Source: Octopus vulgaris (taxonomy: Eukaryota). Taken from it: a DNA stretch of 64,000 nucleotides. The stretch covers positions 59,644,001-59,708,000 of the forward strand of contig OX597827.1 in NCBI GenBank assembly GCA_951406725.2. The letters run 5' to 3'. A program made the position numbers and the translations under genes. Numbering within the stretch: position 1 is the stretch's first letter; each line of letters opens with the position of its first letter. Positions 2,921 through 61,164 of the stretch are shown here, piece after piece. The notes beneath the pieces were generated by a model. It saw only the letters and a list, made by a program, of their open reading frames with translations, ran no database searches and was not told the DNA's origin.

Positions 2921-3134
2921 TAAACCCCGTCCCCTCAAAAGAAACGAAGAAAAAAAACAAGAAAAACCAACAACGCGAGGACGTGGTACATGTAAGGTAT
3001 TAATAAGACGCTCAGGGAAGGCAAAACATGGTTTTACGTTTCGAGAAAAGCTCTTCTTCAGAAACAGGAGACAGAGGAAAGCCCAAAAGAAGAGGAAGAC
3101 GGAGGAAAAAACTGTCAACAATCCACGTGTAGTT
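2921..3134 (-). mobile_element. ~200-bp hammerhead-bearing (TA)n-associated element, copy A (ribozyme 3031-3065)
   Basis: GTTT CTGAAGA A GAG-CTTTT-CTC GAAAC GTA AAAC. Shares the caacaacgcgaggacgtg and gacgctcagg blocks with copies at 8.2, 25.0 and 61.0 kb. Confidence 0.8.
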
Positions 3135-4117
3135 ATATATGTATGTATGTATGTATGTATGTATGTATATAAGTTGAAAATGTCGCAAAGGCTGAAACCG
3201 GTACTAAAATGTTCTTCATGATAAAATTATTTTAGAATTTTCTACCTTGTCCTATTTTCTTTATATGTGTGTGCGTGTGTGCGCGTATATATGTATATAT
3301 ATATATATATGTGTGTGTATTTAACGTATATGTATTTAAAAGTCACAATGACAAACGTTGTTTTAGATATCACAATGACGGAAGGGTCTCGGCTGGAACG
3401 TCTTTGATCATAAATTTGCACAACGTATGTCGATCTGAGTACTAAACAACAATAGCATCGACTTCAAATCCTCCACTATCACCTCTACACCTTCCTCTCC
3501 GCCTCCTCCTCATTTCACGATATCCCTACCACCACCATACAACCACTAGGAACAATGGCTGTCCATAACATCCTAGTTCTGTTATGTGATTGTCACATGA
3601 GTGTCAGAGAAGGTGTCAGAAACTGCGATCTCAACTATCAATATCCAGAGAGCGATAGGTAGAGGAGAAGATCCAGAGAGAACAAGAGAGGAAACTAAGT
3701 GCGAGTGAAAAATAGAGCGGAGGAAGAGAAACAGTGAGAGAGTAGAAAGAGAAGAAAGACAGGGGTGGGGGGGGACTCTGAGCTATTTAAGAAAAGGAGA
3801 GAGGGAGAGGAAGAGAAGAGTGTGTAGAAAGTATGAGACAGGTAGACACATAAAAAGTAAGACAAAGCAAAGTGACAGATATATAGTCCATCAGATAGAT
3901 GGCAGGTGGATGGGTTGGCTGGTTGGTTGGTTGGTTGGTTGGTAGGTGGGTGGTTAGAGACATTGTGAATGGGTGTATAAAGAGATAAAGACTAAGTTGG
4001 TGTTGATAGATACACAGAAGGATATGTGTGTGCGCGCGTTTTAAACATATATACATATATATATATATATATATATATATATATATATATATATGTATAT
4101 ATATATATGTATTTTCA

Positions 4118-4270
4118 TTCTTTTACTTGTTTCAGTCATTTGACTGCGGCCAAGCTGGAGCACTGCCTTTAGTCGAACAAATAGACCAGGACTTATTCTT
4201 TGAAGGCCTAGTACCTATTCGACCGTTCTCTTTTGCCGAACCGCTAAGTTATGGGCACGCAAACACATCA
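4118..4270 (-). mobile_element. SINE family B, 3' fragment
   Basis: ttttacttgtttcagtcatttgactgcggcc...ttttgccgaaccgctaagtta matches the reverse complement of the tail of 20568-20975. Confidence 0.85.
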
Positions 4271-4815
4271 TCCAACTGTTAAACGTGAAGGAGGATATGG
4301 GATGATCGGGGGTGGAGCTATATCTTGGAAATCCACTGGCCCAATGGCTTATCTTCATGGCAGAATTAATAGTCAAGACTATTTAAGCATTTTTATCTGA
4401 TCAAATTCATCCTATAGTTGCGAAACTGATTCCCGGAGGGAAAGGCAGTCTTCAGGATGATAATGCACCAATTCACACGGCTAAAGTTGTTCCTGAATGG
4501 CACGAGGAACATTCTAGTGAAGTTGAACAACTTTTCTGGCCACCACAGTCCCTAGAGCTCAATATTATTGAACATTTATGGTGCATTTTAGAAAAAAACA
4601 AGTAAGGAGTCGATATCCTCCACCATCATCACTACAAGAACTGGAGATTGTTTTAGCTGAAGAATGGACAAAAATTCCTTTGGAAACAATTCAAACTCTG
4701 TATGAGTCCATACCTCATAGAATTCAAGCTGTTATTACTGCCAAAGGCGGTCCAACCCCATATTAAAATTTGTTTGAAATTTCAAGGTATTTACATTATT
4801 TTGTCAAACCTCTCT
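4270..4815 (+). pseudogene. Decayed Tc1-like (DD34E-type) transposase, C-terminal half plus 3' end
   Basis: Frameshifted translation PTVKREGG...GAISWKSTGPM...QDDNAPIHTAKVV...WPPQSLELNIIEHLW...SIPHRIQAVITAKGGPTPY* carries hallmark Tc1 motifs. Confidence 0.9.
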
Positions 4816-4948
4816 CTCTCTCTCTCTCTCTCTCTATATATATATATATATATATATATATATACACACACACACACATATATATATATATATGAGTGAG
4901 TAGAGAAACGAAAGAAGGGCAATCAACACATCTATTGGGAATTACGTT

Positions 4949-5093
4949 TGAATCAAAGCAGGTTGATTCAATCCCCTTGGTATCCTGAGTTTCAAGCGTG
5001 ATGCTAATCTTCGGGCAAACTCCAATGTCCGAACATTAATTTCACATTTGAAACCAGAGTACCAAGGAGTTTGAATTAAGCTGTTTTGATTCA
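4949..5093. repeat. 145-bp imperfect fold-back palindrome (arms ~68 bp, 8-nt loop) abutting (TA)n
   Basis: 4949-5017 aligns end to end with the reverse complement of 5026-5093, with scattered mismatches. Confidence 0.85.
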
Positions 5094-58494: not shown

Positions 58495-58935
58495 GTCAGC
58501 GAACCGACAGAATTCTTAGCACACAGGACGAAATGCTTTGCAACACTCCACCCTTCTTCACATTTTGAATTCATATTTAAATTCAAATTCCGCCTTTTCA
58601 GCCTTTCCGGGGTCGACAAAAATAAGTACCAGTGGAGCACTGGGGTCGGTGTAATCGACTTCCCTTTTCCCTCCAAAAATGGTGTCCTTGAGCCAAAATT
58701 TGAAACCATTAGATACCAACAAAAGGCGGCGAGCTGGCAGAATCGTTAGCACGCTGGACGAAATGCTTGGCGGTATTTTGCTCGTCGCTACGTTCTGAGT
58801 TCAAATTCTCGCCGGGGTCGACTTTGCCTTTCATCCTTTCGGGGTCGATAAATACCAGTGAAAAACTGGGTTGTGAAATCGACTAGTCCCCTCCCACAAC
58901 ATTTCAGGCCTTGTGCCTATTGTAGAAAGGATTAT
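58495..58935 (+). mobile_element. Two tandem SINE family A copies
   Basis: 58495-58710 is diverged; 58722-58935 is close to consensus. Confidence 0.85.
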
Positions 58936-59114
58936 TATCATTATGAAGGGCGGGGGCCTGGTAAAATCGTCAGCATGTCGGGGCAGAATGTTGCGATCTC
59001 GATCACTTCTACTTGGAAACCGAGTACCAGGCTTTATGAATCCTAAGGCTCACAAAATAAATACAGCAATCCCACGACTATTGCCGATGTTGCGTTCCAA
59101 AACCCCTCGCGATA

Positions 59115-59424
59115 ACTCTTTACTCTCTTTTACTCATTTCTGTCATTTGACTGTGGCCATACTGGAGCACCGCCTTTAGTCGAGCAAATCGACCCCAGGA
59201 CTTATTCTTTGTAAGCCTAGTACTTATTCTATCGGTCTCTTTATATATATATATATATACGACGGGCTTCTTTCAGTTTCCCTCTACTAAATCCACTCAC
59301 AAGATTTTGGTCGGCCCGAGGTTATAGTAGAAGTAACTTGCCCAAGGTGCCACGCAGGGGGACTGAAACCGGTATCATGTGGTTCGTAAGCAAGCTACTT
59401 ACCACACACCCACTTCTACGCCTA
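59115..59424 (-). mobile_element. SINE family B with internal deletion
   Basis: Head and tail blocks are present; the central caaccgatgctggtg block is missing. Confidence 0.85.
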
Positions 59425-60962
59425 AGTAATTTTTAAAATTATTTTTATAATTTGTATATATTTATTTTATTATAAATGCAAAACAATACCACAGAGAAAT
59501 CGACTTAAGCTTAAATAATAAACCGCGATATGGGCGAGGGATTACTGTAATAATAAAACAATTAGATAAACCTCTAATAATACGCCTTGTAGCTGGAGTT
59601 ATTTTTCGAAGATATTTTGGAAGAGTCGTTTTCGTCAAAGGAAAAGAGCACCCGCACAACACATTTAAAAAAATATTTTCACTTTAAACGAAACAACAGA
59701 AAAAAATGACTTTGTGAAGGGGAAACTGCAGACATCTTAAGATCTATACCACCATGACCTCCACCAACATCATAATCACCGCCGCAACCAGCACAAACCT
59801 CGCTACCGCCATTTTAGCTACTACGACCATCACCACTATCATCGCCACCACCATAATCGTCACCACCACCACCACCATCCTCATTTCACCAATACATACA
59901 ATCACATTCCATTATCTATTTATTCTATGAGTCTCCGTAATAGACCTCGATATGTTAAAAACAGCAGCTAAATATCTTCAGATAACATCCCCCCATCTTC
60001 TTCGCATAAAAAAGAAAAAACAAAAACACAAACATGTTGGATAACGTGTTCCAGGGTTTTCTGTACGTAGTTAAAAACAGACAAGATGGTCACGGGAGGT
60101 GTGTCTTTGATCACGGATCTGCTCGACAAAGGGCTACCCTGGAGCTACGCAACAACAATCATAACAACAGCAACAGAGGCACATCTATTACCCTTCGTTT
60201 ACGACACCACCAGCATCAGCATCATCATCATCATCACCACCACCACTACCATCAACACTACAATCATGACCAATAACAACAAGAACAATACCGCTAGACG
60301 GCACCACCGCCAACGTCTACCACGTGATAGTAAGCCATCACTGTGAAATTAATTACCATATCGAGAAACCAGCCTGCAGACTGTATCACAGACGACCGGC
60401 AACAACTGGAACAGAAGGCCGGCAGATCAAATCAACACGTTTAAGAATAGGCGTGAGGGGAGGGAGTGACGAGTGGGCTGGGATATGTGGGGTGGGGATG
60501 GGGGGGTCATATGGGTTGGTTGGTTGGTAGGAGGGGGTGTTGGTAGTGATAAGGATAGGGATTACGTAAGGGAATGTTGTTCTAGTTCCAGTTGCTGATG
60601 TTGATGATGATGGAAACGGTGGTGGTGGTGGTAGTGATGGTGACACAAGGTACAAAAAAAGGGCACAAAAGCGGCGAATGTTTAGGTGTGGTGGACGTTA
60701 TAACATAGAATAGCAGGACGAACAAACACACACGTATTTATTATATACGTACATACATACATACATGCATACGCACGCAGTCACACACACACACATATAC
60801 CAGAGTAAGCACATAAATGTGAAACAAGGTGGAAGAATAGTAGTCGAAAATTAAAGGTAGAGTAATACATATTTTATCAGTAAAGTTACAGACATCCCAA
60901 AAACTGTTACTCAGAGTTTCACGTTCCCGTTCGTCCGACAGTTTATATATATATATGTATAT

Positions 60963-61164
60963 AGTCAATCCAAACATGAACAAGCAAGAAAAAACAACAA
61001 CGCCAGGACGTGGAATAAGAACTGTGTTATTGGACGCTCAAGAAAGGAAAGAAAAGAAAGAGGATTTAACGTTTCGAGCGGAGCTCTTCATCAGAAATAT
61101 AGAAAAAGTCCAAAGAAGGGAAGACGGTTAAAGAAAATCGCCAACGATACACACGCGGTCACAT
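60963..61164 (-). mobile_element. Hammerhead-bearing element copy E (ribozyme 61064-61098, canonical core)
   Basis: ATTT CTGATGA A GAGC-TCC-GCTC GAAAC GTT AAAT, lying between (TA)n and (TG)n. Confidence 0.85.

Follow-up and report, generated by a model that had tools for sequence, protein, structure and literature searches.

Minimal hammerhead ribozymes have been described in metazoan Penelope-like elements (PLEs), where they occur as thousands of mostly single copies, few of them in full PLEs; they cleave poorly and only as dimers, and the single ones are probably truncated PLEs (PMC4209133). Solo copies of the pseudo-long terminal repeats (pseudo-LTRs) of PLEs are already in print as well (PMC3846280). 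Penelope itself has an internal promoter with an initiator in its pseudo-LTR (PMC2377424). For Poseidon, a PLE of Anolis carolinensis, reverse transcription was found to be initiated inside the RNA, with a tail lying between two start sites; hammerhead cleavage was unneeded in vitro, and the ribozyme cleaved only with protein (PMC11167929). A further class, the metazoan non-LTR retrozymes, comprises short, non-coding, hammerhead-bearing elements that are PLE-related and have many dispersed monomers, together with head-to-tail repeats, canonical hammerheads and circular RNAs (PMC7229834; bioRxiv 2026.07.22.740005). Here we analysed a stretch of 64,000 nucleotides from Octopus vulgaris (GenBank assembly GCA_951406725.2, contig OX597827.1, positions 59,644,001 to 59,708,000 of the forward strand), hereafter the window. 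A preliminary description of it had noted related units of ~200 bp that carry a hammerhead motif and target (TA)n, and had read them as a separate, non-autonomous "SINE-like retrozyme" (SINE, short interspersed nuclear element) mobilised by a Penelope-type enzyme. We found that each unit is the last ~200 bp of a pseudo-LTR belonging to one of three related endonuclease-bearing (EN+) PLE families, here called A, B and C. We further consider it likely that most of the solo copies of these pseudo-LTR ends are internally primed run-off cDNAs.

The parent elements were recognised from sequence adjoining the units. Two family A copies have more than 1 kb of upstream sequence in common, and tracing it led to a locus (L115) in which a reverse transcriptase (RT), a CX4CX2C linker, a GIY-YIG domain, a 2.2-kb (CA)-rich untranslated region (UTR), the unit and (TA)n follow one another in this order. 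In two other family A loci, L114 and L116, the endonuclease (EN) end is joined to a unit. When family A loci were chosen by similarity to the open reading frame (ORF) only, a same-strand unit lay downstream in eight of ten, these ten being the best of 40 scored, and three of ten family A loci (L161, L163 and L167) have units on both sides of the coding region. For family B, two of the ten loci fetched (L171 and L172, picked because the match list already showed unit pairs) hold two units ~4.49 kb apart around the coding region. Of the 22 family C loci extended upstream, 3 carry the EN end. Two of them, L209 and L217, run colinear for 1.7-1.8 kb, from the EN through to the unit, and only the 3' repeat was found in this family. 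In every family the unit thus lies downstream of RT/GIY-YIG coding sequence, from which it is separated by a (CA)-rich 3'UTR; in families A and B a further unit lies upstream of the coding sequence. This bears out the proposed link to a Penelope-type RT/GIY-YIG enzyme. Self-matches of the pseudo-LTRs in full-length copies measure 500-900 bp, so that the ~200-bp unit is only their last part, and such copies carry two hammerheads in cis, ~4.5-6.0 kb apart. Comparison with the ORF-bearing copies therefore identifies the units as pseudo-LTR fragments of Penelope families, an outcome that the preliminary description had named as a refutation for families already catalogued, and the notion of a separate non-autonomous element was not supported. 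The same applies to the supposed need for trans-dimerisation of two copies or for a rare tandem master, because full-length copies and partial tandems hold two hammerheads in cis.

The coding regions contain the YIDD motif of the RT and match Pfam RVT_1 with E values of 8.9e-7 (L172) and 1.6e-3 (L167), both below the curated cut-off. The GIY-YIG domain lies in the RT frame and shows the motif LYIGQTGR in L167 and L172; its Pfam GIY-YIG match is weak (E 0.0079) and occurs in L167 only. A protein search returned 1,252 homologs at E<=1e-50, with PF00078 in most of the 120 listed. No stop interrupts L167 (816 aa) or L172 (930 aa) between RT and EN, and L167 has the linker CSRSRCNTC followed by CNRC, EH and RH in the endonuclease. 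The Neptune clade is defined by a CX2-5CxxC linker together with a CCHH-type endonuclease motif (PMC8557442). The octopus linker and endonuclease motifs fit this clade, a putative assignment made from motifs and by-eye likeness, and the N-terminus of the octopus RT is by eye nearest to the Neptune1_Ap row of the EN+ PLEs in that paper. Among 10 of the 16 places at which "Obim" occurs in its supplement, the octopus families are Naiad and Hydra-1 only.

Two other PLEs were considered as parents and rejected. The young 781-aa GIY-YIG PLE of loci L091-L100 has a 3' end distinct from that of the units and a U3-A8-type core of its own, and a tblastn search with its protein gave no match to the window. 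The PLE fragment upstream of a family B copy in L110 belongs to a family (L121-L130) with its own terminus, and the units near L121-L130 are separate insertions into the microsatellite tail of that family. We record for both families what else was seen. Loci L091-L100 (for example G000:C16:20835500-20845499) hold many stop-free 781-aa frames of RT plus GIY-YIG with a second frame upstream; besides the U3-A8-type core of their hammerhead, these elements have an optional tail of ~40 bp and end in (TA)n. The terminus of the older family, L121-L130, carries TTGATGAGCAATGCGAAACCGG, in which helix II of the core is nearly absent.

All five units reported for the window are present and share the core pattern CYGWNGA-A-GAGC...CTC-GAAAC-GTW-AAA. 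Judged by sequence similarity, they fall into the three families as follows (positions are those of the window, 5' starts are counted from C3 of the hammerhead core, and the edge is the fixed 5' end described below); the sixth line gives a degenerate candidate.

2921..3134, minus strand: family C pseudo-LTR end; hammerhead 3065-3031, C3 at 3061; core CUGAAGA, GUA site; 5' start ~77 nt above C3; (TA)n at both ends.
8141..8298, minus strand: family C pseudo-LTR end, cut 21 nt above C3 (8277); (TA)n only on the 5' side.
24953..25148, plus strand: young family A pseudo-LTR end; hammerhead 25023-25057, C3 at 25027; U4C core CCGACGA; predicted cut after GUU at 25053; 5' start at the edge (about -79); (TA)n at both ends.
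25711..25905, minus strand: family B pseudo-LTR end; hammerhead 25844-25809, C3 at 25840; A6U core CUGUCGA, GUA site; (TA)n at the 3' end.
60963..61164, minus strand: family A pseudo-LTR end of an older sub-lineage; hammerhead 61098-61064, C3 at 61094; outer helix I pair A-U; 5' start at the edge.
63032..63080, plus strand: degenerate hammerhead-like remnant of uncertain membership (nhmmer E 0.0094), with helices I and II mismatched.

The five copies are solitary, and their pairwise identity is 49-85%. The 24953 copy matches both pseudo-LTRs of the full-length element in L163 at 90% (blastn) and at 96.6% across a 178-nt core region, and its relatives at 92-97% are spread over many contigs (39 of the 40 scored matches, the remaining one being the copy itself). 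The 60963 copy is 77-79% identical to L163 and 92% identical to a 5'UTR-linked copy in L228. Identity of the 25711 copy to both pseudo-LTRs of the full-length element in L172 is 85-86%, and the EN-linked ends of L209 and L217 resemble the 2921 copy at 77-79% and the 8141 copy at 83-86%. The sixth member proposed earlier has its weak profile match in its favour, but no microsatellite adjoins it, and blastn found no match between it and the five reference pseudo-LTR ends tried. The statement that all copies touch microsatellites thus does not hold for the sixth. The (TA)n bias was confirmed: 40 out of 50 copies selected by their core are followed by (TA)3, as compared with 24% of 80-nt stretches drawn at random from the window. 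The reported absence of an ORF is true of the copies themselves but not of their families, which encode RT/GIY-YIG, and the NTTT start of the motif is missing from the 8141 copy, which has GGCT against AAAC, so that helix I is broken there.

The RNA motif of the units is predicted to be self-cutting. It comprises the core C3-A9, an extra A, a GAGC/GCUC helix II, GAAAC directly followed by GUH without loop 3, and a helix I of 4 bp, and on these features it can be called a putative minimal type I hammerhead, as had been proposed; the loop-less helix III with its palindrome ACGU likewise corresponds to a dimer-type architecture. The minimal hammerheads of PMC4209133 have in common with it the 4-bp helix I, the extra nucleotide between 9 and 10.1, the G10.1-C11.1 pair and the palindromic 15.2-16.2 without loop 3, and their genomic pattern of mostly single copies is the same. 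Helix II has 4 bp in the octopus units in contrast to 7-8 bp in the minimal hammerhead of Schistosoma (PMC4209133). The abundance claimed for the core was upheld by a tight pattern, which gave 14,284 + 14,448 = 28,732 exact matches in the 2.80-Gb genome and none in a reversed control, compared with 2,000-9,000 copies reported in PMC4209133. A relaxed, pairing-checked scan of the window returned six matches, three of which are listed unit copies, against 0-1 in each of 10 shuffles. Among distinct profile matches, the extra A is inserted in 242 of 244 and the 10.1-11.1 pair is G-C in 234 of 243. Core changes are frequent in the same set (U4C in 101 of 243 and A6U in 58 of 243) and family-wide, since family A has U4C with a GUU site and family B has A6U, which sets the octopus units apart from the motifs in the covered portions of PMC4209133. 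A U4C and an A6C change reportedly reduce hammerhead activity (PMC3088659).

The preliminary description had also seen co-varying helices, which proved overstated. In 255 distinct profile matches, a sample enriched by our own searches, only the pair 2.4-1.4 covaries (GC 142, CG 46, GU 20 and AU 5 of 237). The remaining seven pairs of helices I and II show no compensatory change in these matches, and helix II contains no covarying pair; the seven are nearly invariant and therefore uninformative on covariation. The G-C to C-G switch at 2.4-1.4 separates family B from families A and C and thus amounts to about one event. Nor does the helix II stem hold in every copy, as the 2921 copy has a C-U mismatch at its fourth pair. 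When the dimer was modelled for two window copies, the energies were -2.5 and -1.5 kcal/mol, whereas the best cofold gave -16.5 and -27.9, so the ribozyme fold is energetically marginal in this model. An Rfam scan of 111 nt of the 24953 copy (24990-25100) yielded no hammerhead family and nothing relevant, and a scan of the full window was dominated by microsatellite miRNA models among the 150 of 460 matches listed. The idea that a conserved downstream YGAGC acts as an anti-ribozyme switch was abandoned, displacement of helix II being predicted in only two of the five window copies.

The ends of the copies bear on how the solo units arose. The 5' ends of 27 core-selected family A copies lie at -77 to -84 from C3 in 14 cases, whereas 11 copies are shorter and 2 longer. 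The edge is abrupt, as 14 of the 16 copies that reach -77 stop within 8 nt. It carries the motif TTTCAAWATGT, which contains TCA at about -80 and is common to families A and C. Genome-wide, 6,030 matches lie just inside the edge and 271 of them also hold the next 11 upstream bases; by our calculation, the expected share would be about 35-60% if all copies continued upstream at 90-95% identity. The 3' end of the unit is fixed and usually adjoins (TA)n. Copies end ~80 nt above and ~120 nt below C3 and not at the predicted cleavage site. In family A, some 270 nt of 5'UTR follow the pseudo-LTR. A search of the genome for the pseudo-LTR/5'UTR junction gave 43 exact matches, and the 30 loci examined comprise 7 tailed copies, 14 partial tandems, 7 copies that continue into the ORF and 2 others. 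The tailed copies stop at (TA)n after 43-129 nt of 5'UTR, mostly 97-129 nt, and because they continue into the 5'UTR, their source RNA must run on into it. The 5' starts are at or below -83 in 24 of 28 measurable junction loci. Internal joins could be measured in 12 cases, with six at -73 to -85, three below and three above. Partial tandems have two hammerheads ~0.4-0.65 kb apart; both units start at the edge in L237, and L250 combines a start at the edge with a 129-nt tail.

Three loci, L234, L246 and L251 (G000 C6, C11 and C5), have one exact deletion junction in common, and L234 and L246 are mini-elements with a period of ~440 nt and two hammerheads. A prolific mini-element master with the L234/L246 junction was considered and rejected, as only three exact copies of the junction exist.

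These features resemble Poseidon, which likewise has a fixed internal 3' end, an optional tail, AT-rich targets and, in its repeat, a hammerhead that insertion in vitro does not require (PMC11167929). Poseidon belongs to a different clade, its hammerhead overlaps the ORF start and its tail measures 30-40 bp, whereas the octopus pseudo-LTR is followed by the 5'UTR and the tails are mostly longer, as given above. The fixed 5' edge is a feature of the octopus units, none being described in the covered portions of PMC4209133. PLE ends with minimal hammerheads, mostly solitary, are a class already known. Our literature search, with Repbase and Dfam outside it, found no paper on these cephalopod families or on a fixed 5' edge as run-off.

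We propose that transcription would start at the TCA at about -80, from an internal promoter of the pseudo-LTR like that of Drosophila Penelope. The GIY-YIG domain would nick (TA)n DNA and the RT would begin at the pseudo-LTR end, beyond which the RNA continues UUUAUAUA and, as a conjecture, could pair with the target. On an uncut transcript the priming site would lie ~200 nt from the 5' end of the RNA, so that the RT would run off and leave a copy from start site to priming site; alternatively, the RT could jump to another template and produce a partial tandem. Cleavage by the hammerhead would be confined to dimers, would be weak or depend on help from protein, and the insertions could proceed without it. 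Since solo copies are without downstream 5'UTR/ORF sequence, most would be dead ends. The fuller scheme, in which most copies, tens of thousands of them, run exactly from start site to priming site, partial tandems are template jumps at the RNA end and the two-hammerhead mini-elements of 0.4-0.65 kb are a structural stage in the birth of a non-LTR retrozyme, is tentative, and we give it somewhat less than an even chance.

Several points weigh against the proposal. We infer both the start site at -80 and the cleavage from sequence, and the TCA motif is only a partial match to the initiator consensus. The ratio of 6,030 to 271 is inflated by an older sub-lineage that possibly differs upstream, and for the CCTCG variant alone roughly 10% continue, as counted on the first 100 matches of each list. 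Family B has a less sharply defined edge, with 11 of 24 copies at -61 to -89, 7 shorter and 6 longer, two of these six being self-matches judged long by eye; for family C the 5' ends of four copies were measured. Three of the 12 internal joins lie above the edge (-93, -116 and -134), and three of the seven ORF-reaching copies have 5' repeats reaching 228-665 nt above C3, so that some templates extend past the proposed start. In the Anolis element, the site at which the RT starts is not homologous to the cut DNA (PMC11167929), which lends no support to the detail of UA pairing. The N-terminal domain of L167 and L172 lies in another frame, so that no fully intact ORF was seen among the copies examined.

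With the same PLE origin, the solo copies could instead be ordinary 5'-truncated cDNAs begun at the 3' pseudo-LTR of a full-length RNA, and the edge would then be a pause or an effect of microhomology, since AT microhomology of TTTCAAWATGT with (TA)n would favour second-strand joining at this position. In favour of this, longer copies do form a continuum, from 0.6-2 kb to those that reach the ORF, the edge motif is AT-rich, and some joins and some full-length 5' ends lie above it. Yet seven of the 30 junction loci are tailed copies that enter the 5'UTR, for which a 3' pseudo-LTR followed by (TA)n offers no template, the joins to non-AT 5'UTR also cluster at the edge (6 of 12), and the stop within 8 nt is abrupt; we regard this account as unlikely. 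Recombination at the DNA level between two pseudo-LTRs, as for solo LTRs, has been suggested for some solo pseudo-LTRs of Adineta (PMC3846280), but it should leave a repeat with the full length of the 5' pseudo-LTR, in many cases 500-900 bp, and not a sharp-edged 200 bp. It leaves the tails and the partial tandems with short 5'UTR pieces unexplained and, as the main route, is already disfavoured by the length distribution of the copies, so that we consider it very improbable.

A parasite resembling a SINE or a retrozyme is a quite doubtful alternative, in which solo units or mini-elements would keep the promoter, transcribe themselves, be processed by the hammerhead and spread by means of the PLE enzyme. 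Solo units far outnumber body-linked ones (43 exact 5'UTR junctions against thousands of family A units), there are 14 partial tandems and one deletion junction common to three loci, several young solo copies are nearest (97-99%) to the mini-element L246, and animal retrozymes reportedly derive from PLE pseudo-LTRs (bioRxiv 2026.07.22.740005). However, 28 solo family A copies tested were about equally close to body-linked pseudo-LTRs and to each other, so no solo-only lineage is seen; in 28 of 28, the best body-linked identity is within about 2.5 points of the best solo identity. The shared mini-element junction has only the three exact copies, and the copies do not end at the predicted cut. 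No head-to-tail 200-bp arrays were seen in the loci read, although no genome-wide array search was made. Retrozymes would have at least two complete head-to-tail hammerheads and form a lineage independent of an ORF-bearing element. In the loci read, only partial tandems with 5'UTR spacers occur, and no such independent lineage was found. The octopus units have the short length, the lack of coding sequence, the hammerhead, the relation to PLEs and the many dispersed monomers in common with retrozymes, and differ from them in being solitary pieces of ORF-bearing elements with a minimal motif.

Other features were observed in the window.

25512-25567, minus strand: further hammerhead, C3 at 25560, together with 25608-25658, with a real helix III; by eye nearly the Hydra-1_oBim motif in File S2 of PMC8557442, and probably the end of a Hydra-clade PLE; the preliminary description does not mention it.
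46577-46532, minus strand: hammerhead with C3 at 46571, CCGAUGA core and 6-bp helix I, unrelated to the five units.
2532-2580, plus strand: hammerhead with C3 at 2536, CUGUAGA core and 5-bp helix II; the ~50 nt downstream of it are repeated in inverted form on the other side of a (TA)n array, at about 2835-2885.
10058-10375 and 38486-38803 (86%), 36369-36669 and 61855-62155 (91%): two pairs of a ~300-bp dispersed repeat, the members in opposite orientation, probably SINE copies.
56485-57264, plus strand: frame of 260 aa that matches Pfam SPX below the threshold (E 1e-5), a match that may be low-complexity noise; a Pfam scan of 12 long window frames gave nothing beyond this match.

For annotation, our results mean that this genome contains tens of thousands of PLE ends that look like SINEs; the results also bear on the origin of pseudo-LTRs, tails and partial tandems in PLEs. 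If the edge is the transcription start, the solo ends would be by-products of internal priming on uncut RNA, and the in vitro result obtained with Poseidon of Anolis would extend to another clade. Under the fuller scheme, the genome itself would map both the transcription start and the RT start of these PLEs. Also under this scheme, the U4C and A6U cores found throughout families of recent activity would indicate that slow cleavage is tolerated and contributes to the production of solo ends. Families A and B offer natural U4C and A6U cores for asking whether such ribozymes cut.

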